A program made the translations under genes and the position numbers. A DNA stretch of 64,000 bases from Candidatus Omnitrophota bacterium (GTDB lineage Bacteria; Omnitrophota; Gorgyraeia; Gygaellales; Profunditerraquicolaceae). Location: NCBI GenBank assembly GCA_041662125.1, contig JBAZTA010000004.1, positions 64,343-128,342 on the forward strand. The letters run 5' to 3'. Under the pieces are notes generated by a model that made no database searches, was not told where the DNA came from, and was given only the letters and a program-made list of their open reading frames with translations. This document shows positions 1,369-51,869 of the stretch, one piece after another (the first letter of the stretch is position 1; the number at the start of each line of letters is the position of its first letter).

Positions 1369-3057
1369 CTAAGCCACCTTACTATTCTTACTCTTTAACT
1401 TAATCGAAGGGTTTACCCTAAGCCCCTTCTTTTTAACATTACGCCCCTGAGACCTGTGACCCGTGACTTTTCTATGGTATTCCTGCAACGACTTAACACC
1501 CAGATTCTCTTTAACCAGCGCCTCAATCCCGTTGACCGTGGCCTGCGCTCCGGAAATCGTAGTCGTGTAAGCGATATTATAGGTGATAACACAGGAACGG
1601 ATCTTAACTTCATCCTGGCGGGGGATCCTTCCCGAAGGAGTATTGATCACCATTTGGATTTTGCCGTCTTTCATAAAATCAACCACGTTCGGCCTGCCCT
1701 CGGCTATCTTCGGAAGGATCTTTACGGAAATATTGTTTTGTTTGAGTGCCGCGGCAGTGCCGGAAGTAGACAAAATATGAAACCCAAGATCCTGAAGTTT
1801 CTTGGCGATAAAAACGATCGCGCGTTTATCCTTATCCCTGACGGAAATAAAAACATTTCCGCTGCGGGGAAGCTTCTGGCCCGCAGCAAGCTGGCTCTTG
1901 ACAAATGCCCTGCCGAAATCAACATCGATCCCCATGACTTCACCGGTCGATTTCATTTCCGGACTCAGGATAACATCGACTCCCGGGAAACGGTTAAACG
2001 GAAAAACTGATTCTTTTACCGCGACGTGTTGCGGAATAATCTCCTGAGTAAAACCGAGATCCTTAAGCTTTTCACCCAGCATAACCTTGGTTGCCAGTTT
2101 TGCCAACGGCACGCCGATCACTTTCGAAACAAACGGGACAGTCCGTGAGGCGCGGGGATTTACTTCCAAGACATAAACCTTATCATCTTTGATGGCGTAT
2201 TGCACATTCATAAGCCCTAAGACATTCAACTCTCGGGCCATCTTATAGGTCGATTCCCTGACTTTATCCAACAGGTCTTTCGATAAGGTATACGTCGGAA
2301 GCGTCATCGCGGAATCTCCGGAATGAATTCCTGCCTCCTCAATATGTTCCATAATGCCGCCGATAACAAAAGACTCCCCGTCACCGATCAAGTCCACATC
2401 AACCTCAATAGCATCTTCCAGGAATTTGTCTATCAAAACAGGGTGGTCACCGGAAACACGGGCTGCTTCAATAATGAATTTCTCCAGCATGCTTTCTTCA
2501 TAGACGATTTCCATTGCCCGCCCGCCCAGGACATACGACGGCCTGACTAAAACCGGATACCCTATTTTGCGCGCCACCTGGGAAGCCTCCTCATAATTAA
2601 ACGCCGTACCGTTCTGCGGCTGCAGGAGGTTTAATTTCTCAAGCATCTGTTTAAATCTTTTTCTATCTTCAGCAATATCGATAGCGTCAGCGCTGGTCCC
2701 CAGTATATTGACGCCTGCTTTACGAAGCGGTACCGCCAAATTAAGAGGGGTTTGCCCACCAAACTGGACGATCGCTCCCATCGGCTTTTCCGCTTCAATG
2801 ATCGCCATAATATCTTCAAACGTAAGCGGCTCAAAATAGAGGCGGTCGGAGGTATCATAATCAGTCGATACGGTTTCAGGATTACAATTTACCATAATGC
2901 TCTCCACTCCCTCTTCCCGCAGAGCATAGGCGGCATGACAGCAGCAATAATCAAATTCGATCCCCTGGCCGATACGATTGGGCCCACCTCCCAGGATCAC
3001 AACTTTCTTTTTTGGAGTATCGTTTAATTCTTTTTTATTTTGATGTTGATCCTGCAC
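1369..3057 (-). CDS. carB: Carbamoyl-phosphate synthase large subunit, C-terminal half only (second ATP-grasp plus MGS-like domain). This is a split carB.
   Basis: [26 protein letters not shown]...[24 protein letters not shown] aligns to E. coli CarB from residue ~553 onward. The C-terminal MGS-like domain is present. Length 562 aa against ~1070 aa for a full CarB. Confidence 0.9.
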
Positions 3058-3334
3058 AAAAACCTCCTAACCTCATGATTTATTATATGGTCACCGGCAA
3101 CCGAACACCTTTTAAATTTGTCCCGCCTCGTAAGATGTGTAAAAATTCTCTTCGATAATTTTTGCACACTCGGCGGGATAATTTGGCAATACTATTGCCG
3201 AGGCAAATTTATGCGCCTGGCGGGAATTAAGCTCCACACGCTTTTATCTAGCGCAATCCTTCGAAGCTACACCGCAGCTTTACCTGTCGATTAGCGTAGA
3301 AGGGCGAACCTTTTCCCCGCGTATTTTAAAGTAG

Positions 3335-3406
3335 TGCGCCTGGCGGGAATCGAACCTGCACACCCAGCTCCGGAGGCTGGTGCCCTATCCTTTGGGCCAC
3401 AGGCGC
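3335..3406 (-). tRNA. tRNA-Arg (anticodon CCG).
   Basis: The reverse complement folds as a cloverleaf: acceptor GCGCCUG/CAGGCGC, D-arm GCCCAAAGGAUAGGGC, anticodon loop CUCCGGA (CCG), T-loop UUCGAUU. No encoded CCA. Confidence 0.85.
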
Positions 3407-4649: not shown

Positions 4650-4699
4650 AATCGTTATTATCGTTATGTTTGTTAATATCGTTAAACGAAAGTAACGAA

Positions 4700-5197: not shown

Positions 5198-6478
5198 TTA
5201 CCCGGCGCTCTGATACGCCAACTTGCCGTTACAAATCGTATAGATAACTACCCCTGAGAGGTTCTTTCCCAGAAACGCGGAATTTTTAGACAGGGAGGCG
5301 ATATTTTCTTTTTGCACGCTCCACTTTTGATCCGGAGAAACAACAATGATATCGGCATCACTACCGCTCGATAATGTCCCTTTATTAATGCCTAATATCC
5401 GCGCCGGGTTCAATGACAATGCGGCCACCAGAACATCCCAGCTTATGATACCAGGAGAAACCAATTCAGTGATACTAACCGCTAATTCGGTTTCTAAGCC
5501 GATAACACCGAATTCCGCGCGGTCAAATTCAATTGCTTTTTCATGCTCGGTATGCGGAGCATGGTCAGAAGCAATCACATCTATCGTTCTATCTTTTAAC
5601 CCTTTTTTAATTGCCTCGACATCCGCTCTCGAGCGCAGCGGCGGATTCATCTTTAAATTCGTATCGTAGCCAAGCAAAAACTCTTCACTCAGCGAGAAAT
5701 AATGCGGGGCAGTCTCAGCAGTGACCCGGACACCTCTTTTCTTGGCGCGGGCAATGATTTCCACCGATTCCTTACAGCTGACATGGGCGATATGGACCGG
5801 GGCAGCAGTATTCTCTGCCAATTGGATATCCCGCTCAACCCTCGTATATTCCGATTCCCGGGAAATACCCCGCACCCCAAGCCGCGTCGAAATACTGCCA
5901 AGGTTGATCACCCCTCCCGCGCTTAACGACTTATCTTCACAATGGCAAATAACCGCCACGTTGCAGCGCAAGGCGCTTTTCAAGGCTTCCAGCATTACCT
6001 GTTCCGACTCAACCGATGAACCATCGTCAGAAATCGCAACAATCCCCTGCTTCTTAAGCGCAGCTATATCAGTTAATTCTTTTCCTAACCTGCCTTTAGT
6101 AATAGCGCCACAGATAAAAACATTTGCATGCGCGCTCTTGGCAATGATCCCCTGCAAGATACCTATCCGCTCAAGCGTATCCATGGGTGGATTTGTATTC
6201 GGCATTGCCAAAACACTGGTAACCCCGCCTTTAAGCGCGGCATGAGTGCCGGAAGCAATTGTTTCTTTATCTTCCCGTCCCGGTTCACGCAAATGCACAT
6301 GCATATCGACCAATCCCGGCATAACGACTTTTCCGGAAGCGTCAATAACGGTATCCGCTTTTGCTTTTATGCCAATAGCAACCTCAGCTATTAAGGTATC
6401 TTCCACCAAAACATCGCATACCTTATCTATTTTATTTGCCGGGTCGACCACGCGGCCGTTTTTAATCAGTATTTTCAT
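5198..6478 (-). CDS. pyrC: Dihydroorotase.
   Basis: PGLVDMHVHLREPG metal-binding motif. 426 aa. Overlaps the pyrB stop. Confidence 0.9.
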   Translation of the reverse strand: MKILIKNGRVVDPANKIDKVCDVLVEDTLIAEVAIGIKAKADTVIDASGKVVMPGLVDMHVHLREPGREDKETIASGTHAALKGGVTSVLAMPNTNPPMDTLERIGILQGIIAKSAHANVFICGAITKGRLGKELTDIAALKKQGIVAISDDGSSVESEQVMLEALKSALRCNVAVICHCEDKSLSAGGVINLGSISTRLGVRGISRESEYTRVERDIQLAENTAAPVHIAHVSCKESVEIIARAKKRGVRVTAETAPHYFSLSEEFLLGYDTNLKMNPPLRSRADVEAIKKGLKDRTIDVIASDHAPHTEHEKAIEFDRAEFGVIGLETELAVSITELVSPGIISWDVLVAALSLNPARILGINKGTLSSGSDADIIVVSPDQKWSVQKENIASLSKNSAFLGKNLSGVVIYTICNGKLAYQSAG

Positions 6479-7409: not shown

Positions 7410-7949
7410 TTACTCTTTCTTTACCAGCAGCGCTTCATCCGCACCGTCTACTTCCATTAAACGAACCTCAACCGTCTCATGCAAAGAGGTAGGAATATTC
7501 TTTCCCACGTAATCAGGCCGTATCGGCAATTCCCGGTGCCCGCGGTCAATGAGCACTGCCAGCTGTATTGAACGGGGCCTGCCTAAATCTATCAACGCAT
7601 CTAACGCCGCGCGGATAGTCCGCCCCGTATATAAAACATCATCCACTAAAACCACATTCTTATCGGCTATGTCAAAATCGATCTCGGTCTTATGTACCAC
7701 CGGTTGAGAGCTCGTGAGTGAAAGGTCATCGCGGTACAATGTTATATCCAATATTCCCACCGGGATCTCTTTTTCATCAATAGTTTTAATAGCGGCCTTT
7801 AAACGCTCAGCCAAATAAACTCCGCGGCTGCGGATCCCCACGAGACAGAGATCATCAGTCCCTTTATTTTTTTCCAGGATCTCATGGGCAATACGCACAA
7901 TACTGCGGCGGATCGCTTCTTTATCTAACAACTTTGATTTGTCGGGCAT
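7410..7949 (-). CDS. pyrR: Bifunctional pyrimidine operon regulator / uracil phosphoribosyltransferase PyrR.
   Basis: 179 aa. PRTase motif [18 protein letters not shown]-terminal [18 protein letters not shown] is typical of PyrR. Confidence 0.9.
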
Positions 7950-8002
7950 GATCGTTATTTTCGTTTAGTTCGTTAATGTCGTTAGTATCGTTTCCCTTTA
8001 CG

Positions 8003-8212
8003 TTCGCTTACGCTCCTGAGAGACTCTGTTTTCCCTCGCGTAAACGCTTGAAAATTTCGCAGAAATTTTCTACGCACGCTTCGGGATATTTCGGCCATAC
8101 AACTTACGTTCGCTTATGCTATTGAGAGGTTCCGTTTTCCCTTGCCTAAACGCTTAGTAATTTCTTCGAAATTACTTGCGCAGGCTTTGGGATTAATTCG
8201 CGGACGCTAAAG
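8003..8212. repeat. Two tandem ~105-bp imperfect direct repeats (~75% identical), each holding an internal perfect palindrome.
   Basis: R1 (8003-8105) and R2 (8108-8212) both start ttacgttcgctta. The internal palindromes are gaaaatttc-gca-gaaattttc in R1 and gtaatttc-ttc-gaaattac in R2, which are compensatory variants. Confidence 0.6.
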
Positions 8213-8285
8213 TATAGCTTTAGCGTCCGCGAATTAAAAAAAATCCCAACGGCTTATTACGCAGTTGGGATATGATTTTTTAAGG
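8198..8285. terminator. A 16-bp perfect hairpin followed by a second hairpin flanked by A8 and T-rich runs. It could terminate either strand or act as the pyr leader attenuator on the minus strand.
   Basis: ttcgcggacgctaaag-tata-gctttagcgtccgcgaa, then aaaaaaaa, then atcccaac-ggcttattacgca-gttgggat, then atgatttttt. Confidence 0.5.
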
Positions 8286-8354
8286 TCGTGGACCATATTT
8301 CTCTACCTTGCCAGCTTCTCATGAGCCGACTTAAAGGTCTCCTGTATTTAAATA

Positions 8355-8384
8355 AATATACCACCTCTTGGCGTGTTTGTCAAG
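8355..8384 (-). promoter_or_regulatory. Sigma70-like promoter reading leftwards into the pyrR-pyrB-pyrC leader.
   Basis: Minus strand: TTGACA (8384-8379), 18-nt spacer, TATATT (8360-8355). This would give a ~400-nt leader ahead of pyrR. Confidence 0.4.
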
Positions 8385-8538
8385 GTAAATAGCGGCATTA
8401 ATAAGACCGGGACTTATCAATAATAAAACGCGACCGTTCAAGTCCCGGTCTTAGTTATATGGATTAAGTTCAGTTAGCGGGTGACGAGGCATGTTTCGAG
8501 CGATGACGCGAGAAACATGCCTCGGCAGGACCCGCTAC

Positions 8539-8617
8539 CTCGTAAAAATAAAAAGAAGGGGTGCTCAAGAGACGTCCTATGGGGGCTGATAAACCAAAGG
8601 GCGGGAACACCCCTTCT
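8539..8617 (-). terminator. Intrinsic terminator of the giant gene.
   Basis: On the minus strand, just after the TAA stop at 8625-8627: stem AGAAGGGGUG, a ~44-nt loop, stem CACCCCUUCU, then UUUUUAUUUUU. Confidence 0.6.
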
Positions 8618-8624
8618 ATACTAC

Positions 8625-11600
8625 TTATTGTTCTATTGTCACCGGCTCCTTAGCCGTAAACGCGATCTTTGTAAGGGCAACCTGCAAGTCACCTGCCGGC
8701 TTATCCGATTCCAATAAAGCCAGGAAATCCCTGAAAGCCGATTCAGTAGGTTTAAGTTGATCTTCTTCCAGCCTTAAGATATCCGCGATGCAGGCAAGCA
8801 CTTTTTCAACCTGCGGGTTAATATCATCTTTGAAACAACAAGCCTCTAAATATTCCTTGATCCTGTCGCTGGCGGGAATAATCCCTGCCTGGATCATATC
8901 TTGTATTTGCTGCCATTCTTCATTGAGATTAACATTCTCGAAACGGCTCAAAGGCGGTACCACATTCATCCCCGGGACATTCATCGGCTGCGTGACAATA
9001 GGCAACGCTCGCAAATCAATACCTCCGGGCTTAAGCGGGCTTGAAGATAACAATTTGACTGAAGAACCGGATTTTTTGAGTTCAAATGATCCAGCTAACT
9101 CTTTGTTTAAAACATTTCGCACCTCTGCTTGCCCCTGAGGATCAACAATAATATCTACTGCATTTTCTGAATACGGTATTTTCTCCATGACTTTAACACC
9201 GGTGGAATTTAAATATTTTTCAATATCAGTTACATTCAAAACCCCCGCTATTTCATTTGCGGGATAAATAATGAAAGCATTCCAGTCGCCGCTATTCATA
9301 AAAGGCCCTAAAACGCGTTCAATGTATGCGTGCGTCTTTTCTGCCATAGGCGCCAAATGAGCAAGCGCCATTTCCCCGGTCTGCGTATTATACCCTGCGA
9401 CCGCCATACAGGTGATCAAACTAGCGATGCAAGGCTTTTGTCCTATTCCCTGGGTTTTATCCGGGGCTACAATATCAGGGGTTAACTTCAATTGTTCCGC
9501 GACACCCTTCATTTGTCCTTCCCGCCTCTGCTGTCCACCTGCCTCTTGCATCATTTCTCCTACACTTTCCACACCCTGGGTCAACGCAACTTCAAGGAAT
9601 TGTTGATAAAGCTTTACCATATTCTCATCAGTGTCGGCTTTCCTAAGATTTACTTCCTGGCTGCCATAGACCCAACGTATCAACCATTCCTGATGGCCCG
9701 ACAAAGACGCTTGCGTATCTTCAAAAAGGCCTAACCTGCCCGGCACGCCATTCTTTTCAACAGAGTGATATAATGAGTGAAATTCTTTAAACTCTTCCAT
9801 AAGAGATCCCAAAGAAGGGATATTTGATAACGGCGACCCCGCAGATTGATTTTTTGAAAGAACAAAAATAGGAGGAGCTTGATTATCCGGGCTTGCATTA
9901 ATTCTTCCTATGAGCATATAAGGCTCTACCAACTTCAGGTCTGCGAAATCCCCCCATTCATTATGCAAAAATTCGAAAACAGCCGGGAATATTTCATCTT
10001 CCCTTAATTCTCCCCGCGCCCTTAATTCTTCAGACATAAGATTGCAAGCCTTACTTATAATTAAGGAAAAACTATTGAGAAGCTTAAACGGCGCGACGCT
10101 ATAATCATAGTTCTCGATTATTTGAGCGACTTCTTGATGATACTCAACATATACCGCAATATCTATATCGCTGAACGATGAATCATAAACACCCTTAAAT
10201 CCGTTATTTTTAAGCCTGCCTCCGGTCATATAAAGCCTCATTTCACCGGGATCCGTAATACCTAATTCTTTGAGAAAGTTCTGCGCCTCTTCTAAAATCA
10301 ACCGCCCGGCCCTTAATAAATTATCGCCGCTAAAAACAGTGACAAAACTACGAGCGGAACTCCTGGCTATCCGGTCGGAAGAATCAAACTGCCCCCGGGT
10401 AAAGGAGAGCATATCCTGTATCTTGGCTTTAACCACAGCCTCCTCTTCAGGAGTTACTCCTTCAAGAAAGCCGGAATTTTCTGTATTAGCTATCGGGCTG
10501 CTGGTGGTTTTCGTCATCTTAAACATGATCCGACGCGATAATTCCTTGTCCCAAGAATGAACCGCAAGCTCTACAGCCCTTAAACCGGGAGGAACAAATT
10601 TCCGGCTTTCCAGCGTATTACCAACTATAGCGATCCCGATATCTGATAAATGATCCTCAATGCCGTTTAAAAGACGCGTATAATCTGTCACGCCTATTTG
10701 ATAAGCTCCCTCCATTTTAACCTGCGAATCATATACCGCATTGGGCGAATTAAAATAGATAAAATCATACTTACCGCTTACTGTTTCAAATTCCTTCTCC
10801 TTTTCCACTTTATGCACAAAAACTTCCGCATCATTGCTCCCGGGGAATAAAAGGTTAAGATTAAATTTCGTATTCTCCACCGCTTCTTGAAGTATATCAA
10901 TGGCATCAATGCGTATGCGTAACCCCGCGTCTTTTACCTGGGCATAGGCAGTCAACGCATCGACCCCGGTCCCCGAACCGATCACTAATATACGAATACT
11001 ATCTCTACCCTGAGACTTCAATTGTTTTATAACAGCCGGCAATGCTTCTTTATCTTTAATAAACTCCGCGGAATATAAAGAAAGTCCATAGTCAAAAACC
11101 GGAGAATAAACAGCCGTATGGCGCGCCATGACCCCTTTATACATAAGCTTTCTTAACATGCGGTAAGCTTCCTGGTCACGGGTACCGCCGATAACCTGAT
11201 ACTCATTTTCTTTAATTATTTCTTCTAATGCGGCAATTTCCTCTTTTTCTTTTAACACCGGCCTGCGCAAAATCCGGCTTATATACCCTGAGATAATCGG
11301 CGAGCCGGCGGCAACGGTATCAGAACTAAGATTTTCAACTCTCTTCAACGCATCTACCACAACACCAAGGATCTCAGAAAGCCCTAATAAGCTTATTTCG
11401 GTATCCAGGCGCATAAAATGAACATTTTTAAAAAACGCATATTTTTCCTGTAACTTTACAATATTTTCTTTGTTGATGAAAAAGGTCCCTCCCCTGAAAT
11501 CAAAAACAATATCAACTTGTCCCGGCTCATACGCTGAAAGTTCTTTTAAAAATTTATCTAACGTTGCGCCTGTATTGATATCGTTTTCACAGAGTATTAC

Positions 11601-14600
11601 TTTTTTCCCGCGTAATTCTTCCGGATTGATCGGACGGCCGGTACGGCTGTCTTTCCTCCAGGCAAAATCAGGCCGGCCCACCCTTGTTTCCCCGTTCACA
11701 TGAACATCGGCTAACGTTGTCGCAAGCCCCATTAAATCAAACATGGCCGCAGTAAAAGCGCCTGCGCCAGCAATACCAATAGCAATATCATATACCTGGT
11801 TCAGATCCCGCAGCTGTTTTGATTGCGTATCGTATCGCAAATCATAAATTGCAAGAAGCGACTTTAGCCACTTGTAAACAAGGATCTCTGAATCAGCTAA
11901 ACCAAATCGTTTTTTCATATACGACTGTTCAACAAAACCGTTCACTATCTTTTCCTTTATTTCATCATTAAACATATCTTGATGCACAAGGTACCGGAAT
12001 TCCAACCCCTGGATTATAGTATCGTAATTATCTCCTTCATTATTCTTTATATCGTTTTTCAAGTTATCAAATCTTATCTTTACCTGCAACAAGTCCTCAG
12101 CCGAAACCGCTGATTTTATATCAGCCATCAGTATCTCTAACCGGGGAGAATATTTTTGAAGTTTTTCTTTTTCGCTCGCGGAGGAACTCGCGAGATTGCC
12201 TTGAGCCAACGGCGAGCCGGCTGATCTTGTTTCAAACCGCTCTGCTCTCCTGAGCCATTCGGAAATCTTCTTTTGATCGCCGTCACCGACTTCCACTGCA
12301 CCGTTATCTTTTGAATGCACAAGCAATATCTTGCGCTGCTGACCGAGCGCCTGTAAAAATTCAGAGCCTTCCACTGCTTTTTGCAATTGATCTACGGTAA
12401 GATGAAAACCCGCCGGAAAACCATTTTCTGAGATAAGGATTGAGTTTTCTCCATTGGGGTCCTGAGTTTTTAGTTTGTCCGCTGCCCAGGTAAAATCATC
12501 CATAGAGCTGGTATCAACAACATAGCCAATATTGCCCATGTTAGAAGTAACCACAAAACCATAGGTAGCAATAGGGTGGCTTTGATGATTACGAAACACG
12601 ATTGTTACACCTAACCCTTTATCAATAAATTCTATCTCATCTTTCCCGTTTTTCTCAAAACCACGCTCAACTTTCTCATTCTGTAATAATGCTCTTGCCC
12701 ATTGCCGGGAGAAGCCTTGAGCCTCTTGGAGAGTCCTCTTTTCATAAGTTTCTCCACCAAGCAAGTAAGCCGCGATGACTTCTATTAAGTCATCTTTTAC
12801 TTCTTGCGTCATAATTAAATCGTATGTATTGATTTTTCCATTAGCCTTTCTTACAATGTATTGCATGTTTTTTCCCTGGCCCTCTTGTGCCGCTTCAATT
12901 TTCGATTCAGAGAATTGCTCAATAATGAATTGCACAAATCCGGCATTATGGTCAGTGTGATTATGCGTCAATATCCAACGAGAGGGGAGTAATTTTTCCG
13001 CCTTGAGATTAACGTATGCTTCAAGTGAAGGATCCACAAAAATACTTTCTGTTCCGATATTGATAAGAAAATTGGTCACATCTTCTTCTGACAAGGCATC
13101 ATTGACGCCCATAAACGTAACCGACACCGTACCTGCAGGACGATTGTGATATCGATCAAACTGTTCCGGCGTAAAATTCCCTGTTTTATGGACGTGTTCA
13201 TCCTTATTTGTATCGCGTTTACGAGAAACTATCTCCTGCTCTTTTACCTCATTGCCATAACGCTCTATAAATTTATAATTTTCTCCATCTTTTACAACCT
13301 CGACCTCCACATCTCTACCATCTTCACTTAAAACCGTAAATTTCGTCTTGTTTTCCAAGTTTATAATGTTATACGGATTATCTTTTTCCAGTGCCAAGGC
13401 GCTCACCAAAGAAGCGACAAAGCCGTTACTTTTCTTGATCGCAAGGTCTAAAAGCATCTGCACAGCCAAAGCCTCTCGTTCATTATTAACGACAATATAG
13501 GTCGGCCTGATTGCCAAGTTGTCCACCAGTCGAAAACCCTTGGCCTTCAACGATTCATCATTTTTTGGCACAGAAGAAACACGAGAAGCCTCGTAAAATA
13601 GATTACCGAATAAAATAAACTGCAGGTCAGCGCCGTCATAGCCTTGTCCAAACCCAGGGATAACAATTTGTGGGGTTTCCTGCTGTTTATTACTAAATGA
13701 GGGGGAGCCGTTTACAACGACCAGCTTTGATAGCGCAAGCTCACTTCGCGATCCCTCTTCCGCCTTATTTTGCAGCGGCGAGCCGGACGATCTCTGTCTA
13801 AGATTATAACCAAAAACCTGCGCTGCGAACGAAGCAGATTCGCTCAAAAATGCTTCCCGCAATGATGGGTGATTGCGTTTCTTGAGCTCTTCCTGAGCGA
13901 ATTCCTCAATAACTTCACCGGAGACTCCTACGGGCATTTTCTTGACGATCTCACCTGCCATCTTTTTTGCAACGTTGGATGTACAATCTAAAAACAACCT
14001 TGCAACTATTTCCTGGCCGCTGAAATTTGCAAAAGGTGTTAAAGCGATAAAGTTATTTTTTATTTCTTCGAAATTTGCTGAACGGATAGCGGCGTAAAGA
14101 AACTGGCGCAGCGGCATTTTCTTGTAAGCCGCTAATTCCATACATAACCCGGCAAAAACGCTTGTTTCTCCAACAATATCCAAGACTTTCTTTTCCTTTG
14201 AGTAGCATAAATTCTCCGCGGGAATATCCATTATATTATCGCCGCTGACAATATAACTGCAAAGCTCGTCGCGAAAACGCCTGAATCCTCGCGTTAGTTC
14301 CTCGCCCTGTTCATTAATATTCTTAAGGGAGCCTGTCCTTTCAAGGAAAAACCATATAATGTGGCTTAATTCATGCATGATATTTTCCTTCTTGAAATCA
14401 CCGGCTGATTTAATGATAAAACTGGGCTCCTGGGGCTTTGAACGCAGATGAGCAACTGCCTGGCTGCTCGCAAGCACTCCTCCGACTTTTTCCGAAAACT
14501 GCTTATAATAACCGGCGTCTATCTCTAAAACCGGAATTCCCGCGTATCGGGTAAAGCTAATCTTCCCCTGCGCTTCGGCAATAAACGCATCGGCTTTATC

Positions 14601-17600
14601 TGTCGTAATCCCTTCTGAAACTAAAAACATCCTCAAAAGCTCCTGGGGCTGTATAACTTCCGCTTGAGCATTATTTTTCCTTAATTCAACCTCTAATTTC
14701 TCAACGGCTTTTTGATAGAAATTTCTGAGGCCGGCAGGAAAACCTGACTCCGCGATAAGTACGAGTATTTTTGCTTCTTTTTCTGCCTCTGAACTATTTT
14801 CTAAAAGGATCTCCAGCGCCCCGCTATAAAAGCGGCCATGGAAATCCGCAAGCTTCTGTAAATATCCAGGGTTCAGTGGACTTTTATTTTGCAGTGGCGA
14901 AGCGGATGCTTTCGCTGATACCGCAGATCCGGTGGAGAATGGCTGCTGCAATAAAACTTCGCGGTAATCTTTTAAGCTTTGAATATCCTCCTTAAGCATT
15001 TCTCTATCAGATGTATCCAATGAATCGCCAAACCCAACCAATATCCTTGCCAACGCTTTCTCAAGCTTATCAATGACACTTTTAACCTGTTCGACTTTTG
15101 AAGGTTCCCCCTGATACTTTGCTTTTAGCGGCCAGCTTTCCTGATCATATACAAACAGAGGTTCAAGATATTCATTTTTTAAATCGCGTAACCTGCTGAT
15201 CGCGACAATTGCTTTTTCTTTCTGCACAACTTCCCGCTCAAGACTTTGTACCATTTCAAGCCGCGGGATGCTTCCGTAAATCGAAGATTTATCTCCCATG
15301 CTCAATAAAACAGGATTAAACGCCCATTCGTTATTCAACCCAAACGGGTTCTCCTTAACAGGTTCGCGAAAAGAAACAAACCCATCAAATGAAACGCTCA
15401 AATCGCCTCTTCCCGCGGGTAAAATCACTAACCCAACCTCAGATGATCTTTCAATTTCAGGCTCAAACTGATCAGCAGCAGCATCGATAGTAAACCATTG
15501 AGACCCCAGCTTGAATAATCCATACGCATGATACCCTGGCTCTCCCTTATTTTTACCCGTATTAACCAAAACCGCGCTTTCTTTACCAAGGGCTTCCTGC
15601 AGCCACTGGATAACATCCCCGTTCCTAAGCCAGCAGTCATAGCGCACCGCGCTACCAACATCACCGTCTCTCGAATAAGCCTCTTTTTTATCTTTTTCTT
15701 CTAATTTCTCTTTTACTGCCTTAAGCGCAGCCAACACCTTATCCAGCGCTTGTTGATCAACCCCCTTTAAATAATCTCCCCAGCGCGCCATAAAATTTTC
15801 AGGAGTAACCTTAACTCCTTGCAAAAAGTTCCCAAATGTTTGCCAATCAAGGGACACCTCAGCAGCCTCTAAAGAAGCATCTACCGGCGAAGAAGAATTC
15901 TTCACAATCGGGGTTGATTTTAACACTCCGCTCAATTCTTTTTCAATAATGCCCCGGGTATTATTCATATCACCTGACTCGATCATTGCTTTAATCGCGC
16001 GGATCAAAGGCTCATGCTCAACGATCTGACCGTGCCCCTCTGACCCCAGGGCAATCGTAAAAGCTCTTTGTAAATATTCTTGATATTCCGGAGTACGGGG
16101 AGCGTGATAATCATCTTGCACCGCAAAAGACAAAAGGGAATTGACGGAATCCTCAAATCTTGCTTCCCGTCCGCGATTATTCATCTGTGTATTTCCCGGA
16201 TCCTGCGCGCGGGCTATTTCGCGCTGGTCCTGAAATCCTACTAACGCGACAAGCCCCATGGCTATCTGCGGCAGGACCTTAGATGCGCCTGTTGCTTTTA
16301 TCGACCCAAAAGGCGTAGCTGCCAGCTCAATAACCGAGGTTTTACGAAACATCTCTGCGGCTTGGCCACTTGCATTAAGTACTCCATCCCGCAGAATTTT
16401 AGCGCCGTAAGAATGGGCAACAATAACCGTTTCATTCTCCCGATCAGTACCGATATAAAGACTAAGCTGCCTCGATAAAAGAGCGGAAACATCATTGATT
16501 TTATCGAAATAGTTGTATGAAAAAACAGCCAAATTAAATTTACCTTCGAATTCGGAAAGAAATTTATTAAAATAGGATGGAGAGCCATCAGCGCCATGAA
16601 TGAATACAACTGTCGGCCTATCCTGTTGAAACGCGCCTACCTGATATAAGCCCGGAACGCGGGGGATATGCATACTCAGTACGTCTCTGAGGCTCACCTG
16701 GCTTTGCTGTGGCGACTCTATCCGCCCGGAAACACTCAAAGGATAGTTTTGTTTTATTAACGGCCCGCACCCCAATGTCGAAATAGACAACAATACTGTG
16801 CCAAACAATAAAACCGCTGTTTTCTGATACCATGAAGCTTGGCTCAGGGGAGAGGCAGCTGAATCGCTTATAGGAGAGCCTGCTGATCGCTTTTGAGTTA
16901 CTTGTATGCGGTATAAAGAACCATTCTCATCAATAACTAATAAAGCCTTTCTATCAGAAGTAACGCGCAGCATATCATGGTTAGCAGTAAATTTTCCTGT
17001 TTCTCCAACGTATCCCACATATAAAAGCTTCTTTCCTTTATAAATTATATCTCTGGAACCCGTCATCACGAGAATGTTGTCTTTGAACCCATCAAGAAAG
17101 CCTTGAGGATTGGGGCCCTGCACGTTTAAAGTAAGTCCTTGGTATTCGGCTAATTCGGGGCTGACCACATATTGCAAAGTAAGTTCCCAAACTTTTCTGG
17201 CTCTTTCATAATCAAGTATGCGCGAAGATTCATTCCACTCTTTTTTTAAATCACTTTGCGAATATTGGCGCGCTGCGTCTTGCGTTTGTTGTCCGTATGA
17301 TTGGCCTTGTACCGGTGAGATCAAAGGACTAACGGGGTTTATAAGCAGCGTCACAGCCAGGATAGCAGCTGACAAGAATTTACTGATCCCGTTCTGCCCC
17401 GGAGCTACCAATGCTGAAGATGCTTTTACCGGCGAGCCGAAAGATTGATTTTCTTCCGTTACAGCTTCTGCGGCGCCTGAAACAAAATAATGCCTGATCC
17501 CATCAGCAATATTCTTCGATCTTTTCTTAAAAGAGCCTTTCTCCTCCATCAGTTTTTCAACGGTATCATTCGTAACCCTCGGGTCCTGATATTGATAAAG

Positions 17601-20600
17601 CCGCTCCTGAAGCTTTTTTAGCTGCTCAGAGGAGAGCAGGACCATGAGTCGAGGCAATATCTTTTCCACATTAGACGCAGAAACCCCATAATAAAAGAGC
17701 ATTTCAATAATAAACTCATCAAGAGAGCCCGGGATAGTTTTGCCCGGGTCAATTATCCTCAGCGCCCCCGTTTCCTTCTCAAGCATAATATTATTACTAT
17801 GCAGGTCCAAAGACATCCTGCCGTCAAGGACAATTTGCTTATTCAAAACGAAAAAATACCTGGCTAAGAACTCGCTCACGTTTTTTGCCAGCGTTTCAGT
17901 AATAATATTCTTATTGGGCTGCGTTTCACTCAATATCTTATAATCCTTATCCCATCTCAATAAAGCATCCAGCAGCTCAACTAAAGAATCCAAAAAAGCA
18001 GCATTTTTTGCAACCATTAACTGCACCGTCCTTATTTTCATAAGGGTGCTTTTTACTTGCTCTGCGGCATCTCCCGTAGTTATACGCTCTTGCCTCAACA
18101 ATCCTTGCACAATATTTCTTAATTCTTTGTTGCCGGCGATTAAGCCGCACAATGTATCGACCTGCCCCAGCGTAAATCCATCCACAAACTCTTCAACAAG
18201 CACTGTCAGGTATTCGCCGGAATCAAATTTCGTCTCGGAATACTCATATCCACCGGGGGCCGAAGAATTAGCCTGCAAATAAAACACTTTCCCCAGATTG
18301 GGGACAAAACCCGTGCCCCAAAGATCGTTCAGGACCTCTTCTTCTCCTTCTTCAAACATCGCCTCATTTTGAGCCGGCAATTTCAGCGCTACGCTGAAAG
18401 CCTTAACCTCTCCATCATTATTAACGATATCGACCTTAAAAGCATGTTTATTCGCTCCCGACGCAAGATAACCTATGGAAAGTTTTGCTATATCAGCGAA
18501 TGTAAAATTAAAACTAAGCTTTGCCAGAATATCATTTATACTATCCGGCTTATATTTCGCCAGAAATTGTGTGACTTTTTCTGCCTCCCGAGCAACTTTC
18601 CCCTGTTCTGCCGCAGACAAGACGGCCCCTTCCCCCCATGTTCCTCCCGGAGAGGTCATCCTCGATTCAATAATAGGCCCCAGATTATCGGCAGAATCGC
18701 TCATCGGCGAGCCGGCGGATTTTCTTGATGAAAAAAACGATAAGTCAGCGATTGGCCGGTTATCCCAGGACTGAAGATCATTCTGGGATGTCCACTCTTT
18801 AATGGAAGCCGCCATTTGACGGGCACCGGACTCCAAGAATTTCCAAACCATATCCGGAGTAATCGCCAATAGTTTTTTATCATTAAGGGAAACATCACGG
18901 TATTGCGCATTTTCAGGCCATAGCTCTTTCTTATGAATAATATTTTGGATATCTTCCTTATGGCTCAGAATGAACGCGCTTATTTTTTCAGCTGCCTGGA
19001 TATACGCTTCCTTATTCCCCCGCAAACGGTAACCTTCCCCATTATAAGAATGTTCAATATCCTGAAAGTCTCTTTGGTAATAAAGCGGAGCCAAAGCAGT
19101 ATCAAAATCAAAAGGTATTAATGCGCCGTCTTTACTAAGATATTCCCGGTCATTTTGATATAACAAGAGGCCGCAATACATGTCAAGAAGGGCATTATTT
19201 TTTAACGCGGCTATGTTTTGCGATTCTTCCTGGTCACCAAGTAACCTGCTTTTTACCGCGGCCGCTCCCGGGATATATTCCGTCGCAATTATACTCTCTG
19301 AGCTCTCATCCAATGTGAAGACGCGGACCAGAGGCAATAAGACCGAAGAGCCCTGGAACGATCTATCTTTCAGCATTAACGCAAGCAACTCGCGGGCGAA
19401 CAAAGACCTTTTCCCGTTCTCCCGCAAAGTATAATAAATTGCCGTATCTTCGCTTTGAACCATCATTGCGGTATTTATTTCATTTTTTGCGACAAAGAGT
19501 TTTAAGGATCCCGAAGCATTCTCTTCTCCTTCAATTGCGATAACATTAAAACCTTTACTCGAATCCAAAGACAAGCCCTTAACGAGTGATTCGATGTTTT
19601 GTTGTTTACCTGACCCGGGGACCTGGGCAATAATCCATATCTTTTTCCCATCACCGATTGTTTGCCGCCAAGGATCTTTTGGCAATACTGTAGCAGGAAC
19701 ATATCCGTTCTTTAGAGCCAGGGAAACGGTTTTTTCATCAGCAATGGGCGAAGAGCTCTTTTTTACTTTTACAGCCGGCTTTATAGGAGGTGTTTTGACC
19801 GGCGCCTTAAGAGACGTTTTAACAGGCGCCTTAATTGAAGCTTTCACAGGAACAGGAGCTGCTTTCACAGGGCCGGGAGATTTTTGTTGAGCAGGCTGAT
19901 CAACCTGTCCATTCTTGAGGGCAGCCTCAGCTACTGAGGCTATAACATAATAATCAAAAGATTCTTGCGGAACTGCTTTCTTAAAAACGACCATGGGGCC
20001 TGCGTTATAGATAATGCTGCTACGCTGCGACCTGGAAAGATTAAAAAAATGAGGAGATTTATGGCTCAGGAAATCGACATATCTTTGAACCCGAAAACAG
20101 TAAATAGCCGCCCCTAATTCATAATGCGCCTTTGCAGGGAGCTTATCCATCGTTGCCCCGAACGGGTTTTTTTGTTTGGCATCCTTTTTGTATTTCTTAT
20201 ATATATCCCCATATTTCTTGAATGGCTTTAATATTTCATATGCGGCCCTTTCTTCTTTTGTCATTTTATTTGTTTTATTTACTTTGTCATTTTCTTCTTT
20301 TTGCGCCAATTCGTCTATAAACTGCATTAAATCTCTAAAAGCTATCTCTCTGATCTGCATCAACCCTTTAGCCCCTTGAGAAGAGGTAGCTGTCAGGACT
20401 TGCCCTATATTTTCAATACCGGCAATGATCTCCAAATGCACAGGCATTACTTCTTGCGAAATAACATTGCTTGCCTTTCCTTTTTCTACCATATTCCTAA
20501 AAACTGTCCGGGCCTCTTTCGACAATTTATTTCTAACAACCCCGACAACTGCGGCAGACCTCTGAAGTACTGCTTTATTGATACCGGTGAAATTATTCGC

Positions 20601-51473: not shown

Positions 51474-51686
51474 CTTGACTATTTCCCTTCGGTGTGATAT
51501 ATTATTATCAGTAGAGGAAGTTAAAAAATATCCCTGCGGTGTACGTTGGATAATTTGATGATTGGTGAACCAACACCTTAATCAGGGGAGCTAAAACTCT
51601 CTTATCGCTTTGGCGTTTAAGAGGCGGTTCCCACCTGTAACCAAATCGGTTCACACCCATCATGTCTAACGGCACGGTGGGGTTTT
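51474..51686 (+). ncRNA. Candidate small RNA, defined by a promoter and an intrinsic terminator, between pheT and the next gene.
   Basis: TTGACT (51474-51479), 17-nt spacer, TATATT. About 160 nt later comes stem cccacc...ggtggg followed by T9 (51678-51686). No plausible ORF lies inside. Confidence 0.3.
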
Positions 51687-51869
51687 TTTTTGCGCCAGAA
51701 AGGCGCATACCCCACGCAATACCGATTAGCGTGGGGTATGCCGCCACACCAATGAGGCGGGGTGGGGGTGTAAGCAGGGCTAAATCACCTTGAAAACATA
51801 AAGGTTGCGGCAATATCTAAACCGTGATAAAATTTATACTTAAGAGCCAAGATATATAAGAGGTCACGC

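Follow-up and report, generated by a model that had tools for sequence, protein, structure and literature searches.

Several kinds of short, dispersed palindromic repeat have been described in bacteria. REP (repetitive extragenic palindromic) sequences of Enterobacteria and Pseudomonas, together with their BIME and REPIN forms, are short, non-coding palindromes scattered over mostly transcribed spacers between genes, form tandem or inverted mosaics with conserved linkers, show covariation in their hairpins and differ in presence or absence among close relatives. The BOX repeats of Streptococcus pneumoniae (boxA-boxB(n)-boxC) are modular, with an internal module that is reiterated, adopt a stable structure and lie in 5' or 3' untranslated regions without including an open reading frame (ORF). 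MITEs (miniature inverted-repeat transposable elements) such as the Correia elements of Neisseria are 150–300 bp long, have inverted terminal hairpin arms and fall into several subfamilies; those of the Correia type insert beside stop codons and ribosome-binding sites and are co-transcribed with their neighbours. A system of another kind is the attenuator of the Bacillus subtilis pyr operon (Rfam family RF00515), where, near the promoter, a hairpin that has a purine-rich loop and a bulged UUUAA is followed by an intrinsic terminator before pyrR. The subject of this analysis is a pair of tandem repeats, R1 and R2, in the pyrR leader of a Candidatus Omnitrophota bacterium (GenBank assembly GCA_041662125.1, contig JBAZTA010000004.1, positions 64,343 to 128,342). 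This stretch of 64,000 nt is referred to as the window, and positions are numbered from its first nucleotide.

R1 and R2 very likely belong, as tandem and partly decayed units, to a family of modular palindromic repeats scattered through Omnitrophota genomes, and are not a form of control specific to pyrimidine synthesis. The family resembles REP/BIME, BOX or MITE elements, though membership in any of these named families is not established. It appears to share with the REP, BIME and REPIN sequences all of the properties listed above, but its units are longer (~60 nt plus 25–110 nt) and bipartite, no GTAG/CGTC tag is obvious in its consensus (which was not examined systematically), the first of its two parts, module A, has a large loop conserved across the phylum, and the sequences show no similarity. 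BOX and other modular repeats of this kind (ERIC/IRU, RUP) appear comparable in modular build, tandem internal module, stable predicted structure, proximity to genes and absence of an ORF. The BOX host, however, belongs to another phylum, the BOX sequence is unrelated, and the second part of the Omnitrophota unit, module B, is hypervariable rather than conserved. The size, the several subfamilies, the inverted terminal hairpin arms (here AATGAG...CTCATT), the positions beside stop codons and ribosome-binding sites and the co-transcription with neighbours would fit a Correia-type MITE, but no unambiguous terminal inverted repeat with a target duplication could be made out, and many of the Omnitrophota copies are half elements or arrays.

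Tandem Repeats Finder reports a single array in the leader, at 7998–8193, with a period of 106, 1.8 copies, 77 % matches, no indels and a score of 252, and a repeat search delimits two head-to-tail copies of 90 nt each (7998–8087 and 8104–8193) that are 78 % identical. The two tandem ~105 bp repeats of the preliminary description are thus real, though the homology stops at about 8193 and not at 8212, and the final 16–19 nt that had been given to R2 are the left arm of a distinct perfect 20 bp inverted repeat. Re-checking the sequence bore out exactly the statement that the internal palindromes differ and are nonetheless perfect: that of R1 is a perfect 9 bp (8050–8058 and 8062–8070, loop gca), and that of R2 (8157–8164 and 8168–8175, loop ttc) is also 9 bp when extended to 8156/8176. 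When both strands were folded, as had been proposed, the two units gave a consensus (RNAalifold) on either strand in which the pairing grows to 55 nt hairpins, at 8032–8086 and 8138–8192, laid out on the minus strand as UCCC-(3)-4 bp-4 bp-bulge-9 bp-loop-...-GGGA. The hairpins of R1 and R2 differ at 14 positions, of which five are in the loop or bulges and nine are paired, and all nine of the latter preserve pairing (four double compensatory pairs and one change from U-G to C-G). Two G.U pairs are possible only on the minus strand, which is the strand of the pyrR mRNA. Of the two possibilities raised earlier for this covariation, an RNA hairpin or a dyad protein-binding site, the hairpin therefore stands, and is larger than had been claimed, while the dyad site does not, for reasons given below. 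A reading of the repeats as gene fragments (minus strand P[EK]AC..NF.EI.KRL..GK, resembling an XRE/HTH N-terminus) was rejected because the differences between R1 and R2 are spread over codon positions as 7/7/6 (hand count), which is no coding signature, the period, 106, is not divisible by 3, no start codon is in frame and the ORF list contains none on this strand.

Read on the minus strand after a terminator that is described below, the order of parts is A0, B1 (R2), A1, B1 (R1) and A2, as follows:

8193–8237 (arms 8193–8212 and 8218–8237), no strand assigned: perfect 20 bp inverted repeat with a 5 nt loop, copy A0, a module A stem without the conserved loop (repeat search, 100 % complementary; alignment with locus L001).
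8138–8192, minus strand: module B hairpin of subtype B1, containing the R2 palindrome and reading UCCC AAA GCCUGCGC A AGUAAUUUC GAA GAAAUUACU AA GCGU UU AGGC AA GGGA (consensus fold; B1 profile match 8201..8135, E 3.6e-17; 91 % identity to the unlinked copies L074 and L097).
8093–8120, minus strand: partial module A, copy A1, with the loop AGCAUAAGCGAACG and the 3' arm GUAAGUUGUAUGGCC, the 5' arm missing.
8032–8086, minus strand: module B hairpin of subtype B1, containing the R1 palindrome (consensus fold; B1 profile match 8089..8029, E 3.4e-17; 91 % identity to the unlinked copy L100).
7998–8016, minus strand: module A loop fragment GGAGCGUAAGCGAACGUAA, copy A2, without stem arms (exact 19-mer of the genome scan described below; covariance model match 8016..8002).

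The unit boundaries drawn earlier are therefore offset from those of the element itself, the palindromes first noticed are the apex of module B, and the shared block reported as ttacgttcgctta is the reverse complement of the module A loop. Copy A1 is recognized by a module A profile match at 8120..8081 (E ~1e-6), and more than 40 nt of it are nearly identical to the copy at L016 and to that at L030, which follows a 6S RNA gene. The module A covariance model matches A0 at 8237..8189 (17.7 bits, E 0.095).

The longest block common to R1, R2 and the copies at two orthologous pyrR loci (L001 and L003) is a 19-mer, GGAGCGTAAGCGAACGTAA on the minus strand, and a scan of a collection of species-representative genomes found it in 27 genome stretches. 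Twenty-three of these are in metagenome-assembled genomes (MAGs) of Omnitrophota or in others that bear the label Planctomycetales or Planctomycetia; the contig of L003 is among these others. The remaining four are in other phyla (Nitrospirae, Hyphomicrobiales, Arenimonas, Flavobacteriaceae) and have nothing in common beyond the 19-mer, in agreement with the ~4 matches that we estimate would be expected by chance in 596 Gb on two strands. The 23 copies share 60–80 nt of flanking consensus, AAATGAGGCCATAACTTACG-GAGCGTAAGCGAA-CGTAAGTTATATGGCC-GAATTTGA-CCC(variable palindrome)GGG-TTTAATTCG, and their contexts are unrelated to pyrimidine genes, three being found after 6S RNA and the rest beside assorted genes. 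In the Hyphomicrobiales MAG (L011, 2428–2516) two tandem units with GAGCG(C/T)AAGCGAACGTAAAAAAG lie beside GC-rich hairpins, and these are a different repeat that has the 17–19-mer in common, perhaps by chance or as a distant relative.

A second scan, of a metagenome collection with a pattern for the left arm of the R1/R2 hairpin in which five positions were left free, located this arm in 92 stretches, in tRNA spacers, at the 6S RNA locus and near many unrelated genes. The profile built from these unlinked metagenome copies matches R1 and R2 and nothing else in the window (nhmmer; E values as listed above). Neither search pattern matches viral contigs, and a phage origin was rejected. Several family copies per locus of 8–13 kb are seen, and tandem A-B-A-B arrays are found elsewhere (L026, L068, L124 and L003); hence, the tandem arrangement in the window is a habit of the family. 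The preliminary description had allowed for an unrelated tandem small repeat of the MITE or REP type and had suggested a genome search for further copies, many of which would imply a selfish repeat; the dispersed copies recovered by both scans support that alternative.

Within the hairpin, R1 and R2 are 74.5 % identical, while each is 90.9 % identical to unlinked copies (R1 to L100, R2 to L074 and L097). Among 94 members of the family, 73 resemble R1 more closely than R2 does, and 70 resemble R2 more closely than R1 does. Since each is nearer to unlinked copies than to the other, the compensatory differences did not arise in the pyrR leader and, judged from the sequences, R1 and R2 stand for two variants already present in the family.

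Module A is a hairpin of ~60 nt with a covarying lower stem, a conserved upper stem (CUUACG/CGUAAG) and the loop GA-GC-GUAA-GC-GAA, that is, a GNRA tetraloop on a 2 bp stem flanked by G/A-rich internal-loop residues, and it is joined to module B by the linker GAAUUnA. In 20 copies aligned by hand, 10 of the 21 pairs occur in at least two Watson-Crick types. With a covariance model of 12 copies, 34 instances were recovered from 24 loci, and in the resulting alignment, which is fitted to the model and consists of copies related by descent, 98.9 % of cells are paired and 14 of the 21 pairs show double changes, a level reached by none of 500 shuffles. Module B is a UCCC...GGGA hairpin, the interior of which varies between copies yet always pairs; its length lies between 22 and 108 nt, and it folds in every case (z-scores relative to shuffles, -3 to -8). 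Subtypes common to several genomes include CCCTTGACA..., CCCAGCACTAATTTT... and the R1/R2 type. In the last, the right arm, which was unconstrained, always pairs with the positions that the search pattern had left open, the pairs being CG 37, GC 21 and TA 2; GC 55 and TA 4; TA 44, AT 11 and GC 7; and AT 42, CG 15 and TA 5, counts that overstate the number of independent events as the copies share descent.

Many full copies terminate in a second, inverted A-like hairpin (A'), the inverted arms of A and A' ending in AATGAG...CTCATT. At the left end, AAATGAG overlaps the stop codon of the gene before it or comes after that codon, and the right end abuts CTCATT(A/G)AAGGAGG-N5-8-ATG of the next. 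A possible outward promoter in module B, seen in several copies as TTGACA or TTTACA in the right arm with a TA-rich hexamer 17 nt on, was discarded, as the window copies are without it and most downstream genes lie on the opposite strand. No Rfam family matches the repeats or the intact elements, the only matches being spurious ones of hairpin type far below threshold. No paper joining the Omnitrophota with REP, MITE or REPIN, or containing the 13-mer, was found in the literature searched, and the main paper on Omnitrophota genomics makes no mention of repeats (PMC10066038). This A/B repeat family appears to be undescribed.

Comparison of orthologous pyrR loci showed that the repeat block is limited to one clade. 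It is present, in rearranged form, between the terminator and the ATG in L001/L002, L003 and L004, which are syntenic and encode a PyrR 91–92 % identical to that of the window, but in L005–L008 (PyrR 80 % identical) it is absent without trace and the terminator ends 14 nt before the ATG. In L001, L003 and L004 the pyrR-proximal hairpin is without its 24 nt apex, and in these rearranged orthologues the distal hairpin carries R1-type arms. At the site of the 20 bp palindrome of the window (A0), L001 and L003 have a larger hairpin that is an intact module A with the 13 nt loop GAGCGTAAGCGAA. Compared with it, the window palindrome looks like the product of a template-switching-like event in which the left side was overwritten with a copy of the right arm and of some of the linker. 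A third, diverged copy in the window provides a further case:

3121–3199, plus strand: third family copy, made up of a B2-type hairpin (3121–3178) and a stripped module A stem, ggcaata-c-tattgcc (3185–3199).

This copy is placed between a tRNA-Arg gene and a split carB gene (weak profile match; fold), and its hairpin type recurs in L042, L060, L092, L108 and L035. The hairpin is missing from the orthologous site in L001, and the difference between the filled and the empty site could be explained by a TA duplication or by a slippage deletion. Given these indels and the presence or absence among relatives, the repeat block is a clade-limited insertion that evolves by indels, and because the next clade lacks the repeats they are not needed for the pyrR leader.

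The following features of the operon lie on either side of the repeats:

8355–8383, minus strand: sigma-70-type promoter of the pyrR operon, TTGACA-17-TATATT, TG-extended (promoter scan 11/12; conserved in L001 and L003).
8236–8341, minus strand: probable PyrR-type attenuator, with the binding hairpin GACCUUUAAGUCGGCUCAUGAGAAGCUGGCAAGGU followed by an intrinsic terminator with a U8 tract (Rfam RF00515).
8244–8250 and 8264–8270 (plus coordinates): stem of the attenuator terminator, with the U8 tract at 8243..8236.
7951–7992, minus strand: AACGA tract with a 9 nt period that reaches the pyrR ATG and is outside the repeat family (Tandem Repeats Finder, periods 9 and 18; conserved in orthologues).
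7410–7949, minus strand: pyrR (179 aa), first gene of pyrR-pyrB-pyrC (Pfam PF00156 and PF14681; homologues named PyrR).

The placing of the repeats in a pyrR leader of ~400 nt was correct, and the minus-strand promoter earlier put at 8355–8384 is confirmed at 8383..8355. A permissive Rfam scan of both strands of 7900–8700, up to E 10, matched RF00515 to 8341..8236 on the minus strand, with a score of 37.1 bits (E 0.0024) that falls short of the gathering score, 54. The match begins ~10 nt past the promoter, and its last part is a hairpin with eight U after it. L005 has a match of 27.8 bits at the same relative position, and U-G/C-G/G-U exchanges are seen between the binding stems of the window, L001, L003 and L005. 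As a promoter precedes this segment, an intrinsic terminator follows it, pyr genes lie downstream and the changes are compensatory, it fits the context of a PyrR site and is probably a divergent PyrR attenuator that falls below the threshold in Rfam. It resembles the B. subtilis attenuator in all the respects given at the outset, although the resemblance is confined to 8341..8236, the loop is CUCAUGAGAAG and not ARUCCAGAGAGGYU, and in the clade of the window ~290 nt of inserted repeats separate the terminator from the start codon. The earlier statement that the transcript contains no canonical PyrR loop is hence literally true but misleading. Within 7998–8235, the same scan gave no RF00515 match on either strand. 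The plus-strand near match to a PyrR loop, gcTCCTGAGAGACT at 8016–8029, was rejected as a PyrR site, since it is on the strand opposite to the mRNA, is not conserved in R2 and has no Rfam match; from its position in the sequence it is taken to be the decayed left arm of a module A.

From these comparisons, we infer that, in one sub-clade, a single element was inserted into the pyrR leader downstream of the attenuator's terminator and ahead of the start codon, and that it was then partly duplicated in tandem or the leader was struck a second time. Later erosion would have proceeded by hairpin deletions and palindrome-forming events, and the compensatory differences between R1 and R2 are the ordinary covariation of module B seen across the family. 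Pyrimidine control of the operon would be carried by the upstream PyrR attenuator, the repeats doing no more than adding ~290 nt of structured spacer, or 5' untranslated region, to those transcripts that read through. The family itself may spread or persist as a non-autonomous palindromic element of the REP/BIME/REPIN, BOX or MITE type, presumably without a specific role in pyrimidine regulation. Pairing may be kept because a single-stranded form, either a DNA intermediate or a transcript, is recognized, or template switching may regenerate the palindromes.

A number of observations do not sit easily with this explanation. No intact element is found in the window, where module A is represented only by fragments that score 16–18 bits (E 0.1–0.2) with the covariance model. 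No clean target-site duplication could be derived: flanking 5-mers (TCAAA, TTAAA, TTGAA) match exactly in some copies only and are too variable, and the one filled/empty pair is ambiguous. No mobilizing gene was seen in three intervals between inverted A pairs, which encode LemA-like and Fe-S proteins (RAYT was not searched for), and no related autonomous insertion sequence was noticed in the loci examined, though no dedicated search was made. The covariation counts are inflated by shared descent, as already stated. Module A is more conserved across species than a purely selfish repeat needs, and at one orthologous site, flanked by 6S RNA and a rarA-like gene, three or more species retain it with a module B that has changed completely and yet pairs, which points to selection or to a recurrent insertion hot spot. 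Finally, the block has been retained in the pyrR leader over ~8–9 % PyrR divergence, and it may act locally on the stability or translation of the mRNA.

These last observations raise the question of whether the family has a role in its hosts. One version, which we regard as rather unlikely, is that the family is a structured element found throughout the phylum with a host or quasi-host function, in which the module A hairpin, with its GNRA-capped loop kept across species, docks a dedicated protein, perhaps a domesticated HUH-type transposase or an RNA-processing factor, module B provides structure only and the arrays, lying from a stop codon to the following ribosome-binding site, act in compact genomes as modules for intercistronic processing, stability or insulation, so that at pyrR the attenuator would be uncoupled from the initiation of translation. 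A related and also improbable proposal is that the family serves the host and is not mere genomic ballast, its hairpins acting in RNA or as a protein-binding site, with possible roles in processing or stabilizing intercistronic RNA or as insulator or terminator, and that at pyrR they set the stability or translation of read-through transcripts. The latter would account for a module A loop and upper stem that are nearly invariant across species with less than 80 % PyrR identity and for the likeness of this loop to an RNA motif, the GNRA tetraloop. It would also account for the persistence at the 6S RNA locus in several species despite complete turnover of module B with pairing kept, and for the many copies placed precisely between a stop codon and the next Shine-Dalgarno sequence (CUCAUURAAGGAGG-N-AUG). 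Non-Watson-Crick pairs, moreover, are mostly G.U on one strand (8 versus 2 in module A; in module B G.T in 43 of 64 copies and no A.C). However, canonical module A copies are co-oriented with flanking genes in 19 of 22 cases, whereas subtype B1 is mostly antisense to them (23 versus 4; simple ORF calls in both cases), and with orientation so inconsistent the strand compatible with G.U pairs is often not the mRNA strand. Assignment of a strand from the G.U pairs is suggestive, but it conflicts with the gene orientation of B1 and is confounded by shared ancestry, and it was not adopted; the G.T signal was perhaps inherited from a master copy and not selected. The copies also decay freely, through apex deletions, lost arms and presence or absence in close relatives, and the three intervals inspected yielded no protein that would mobilize or bind the elements.

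That R1 and R2 are a pyrimidine-specific cis-regulatory RNA, either a second attenuator or a non-canonical element that binds PyrR or a nucleotide, is very improbable. Such an RNA would be expected to be a structured, covarying hairpin on the sense strand of the pyrR 5' leader, as these are, and a third related hairpin stands upstream of another pyrimidine gene, the split carB. The same hairpin subtype, however, is present at the 92 unrelated metagenome loci, and modules of the family are found at more than 100 unrelated loci in all. The leader of the 80 % clade does without the repeats, the proximal copy has lost its apex in three close orthologues and the copy beside carB is missing in L001. 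On neither strand do the repeats match the Rfam PyrR family, the PyrR-type site being upstream, and neither hairpin has a U-tract after it. The earlier suggestion of a non-canonical pyr regulatory element is, hence, not upheld. That the two palindromes are dyad operators of a DNA-binding regulator, the two units giving two sites, is scarcely credible in spite of the perfect 9 bp dyads with a 3 bp spacer, as the dyads differ at three of nine positions per arm, the arms change freely across the family with pairing kept (the signature of intrastrand pairing and not of a protein reading a fixed sequence), the pairing runs on through G.U pairs and bulges to 55 nt and the sites are downstream of both promoter and terminator.

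The finding as first posed is ordinary, and the family behind it moderately interesting. The case calls for caution, as perfect compensatory covariation between neighbouring repeats mimicked a new riboswitch-like pyr element yet was inherited from a dispersed family, while the true regulator, the PyrR attenuator just upstream, was overlooked. A model of the family would be worth including in the annotation of Omnitrophota MAGs, where it occupies many short intergenic spacers and is open to confusion with regulatory RNA. It overlaps stop codons and abuts ribosome-binding sites and, thus, may distort gene calls; at L012 an ORF (1868–2407, minus strand) runs through the left end of module A and stops at a TAA in the conserved loop, its product ending ...EGITYGA, so that the repeat can provide stop codons and change the C-termini of proteins. 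Should the family prove functional, it would offer a tractable entry to the RNA and DNA biology of an uncultivated, ultra-small phylum, with the conserved hairpin as a handle on the partner protein.

The operon is on the minus strand and consists of pyrR, pyrB and a gene resembling pyrC, followed by a gene for a Mut7-C RNase, a gene for a 413 aa protein, tRNA-Arg and the split carB. The PyrR encoded here has a 100 % identical counterpart in an Omnitrophota MAG. The carB ORF of 562 aa (1369–3057, minus strand) encodes no more of the carbamoyl-phosphate synthetase large subunit than its C-terminal half and has a strong Shine-Dalgarno sequence; pyrR is without one. AACGA tracts with a strict 9 nt period reach two start codons that lack a Shine-Dalgarno sequence, those of pyrR and of the 413 aa MJ0043_C-like gene. 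They are found on the minus strand at 7951–7992 and 4652–4683 in the window, at 9958–9998 and 13314–13336 in L001, and at 5719–5750 and 9072–9112 in L003. The AACGA pattern has five matches in the window against 0.02 expected, and both positions are conserved in orthologues and the pattern is rare elsewhere; the tract could be a translation enhancer or a protein-binding site. Near the third family copy, a 16 nt copy of the 3' end of tRNA-Arg (ATTCCCGCCAGGCGCA, minus strand; 3213–3230 compared with 3334–3352) is found ~120 bp downstream of the tRNA. The intervening 120 bp are missing in L001, and the duplicate resembles a scar left by the integration of an element into the 3' end of the tRNA gene.

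Immediately upstream of the pyr operon is a giant ORF of 4471 aa (8625–22040, minus strand), in place of which the orthologous loci likewise carry giant ORFs, of 2796 to >6400 aa; giant ORFs have been reported for the Omnitrophota (PMC10066038), and this one fits. Right after its stop, at 8545–8625 (minus strand), is a block of ~80 nt, GGGGTGTTCCCGCCCTTTGGTTTATCAGCCCCCATAGGACGTCTCTTGAGCACCCC, that is identical in the window, L001 and L003 and recognizable in L005, while the adjoining sequence on the pyrR side is wholly different among the four. The block is internally complementary (AGAAGGGGTGCTC and GAACACCCCTTCT) and has no Rfam match. Between the giant gene and the pyrR promoter are two long hairpins, at 8397–8458 and 8472–8540, the second with a loop like that of module A (GAGCG-ATGAC-GCGA). 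The hairpins within 8394–8540 give weak scores with the module A model (E 3–4), L001 has unrelated sequence there, and they are probably older, decayed copies of the repeat family. Elsewhere in the window, a 6S RNA gene (51528–51687, Rfam 59.7 bits) is followed by hairpins at 51690–51780 (GGCATACCCCACG...CGTGGGGTATGCC), which occupy the place taken by an intact A/B element, between 6S RNA and the rarA-like gene, in three other Omnitrophota species and are possibly a decayed copy of the family.

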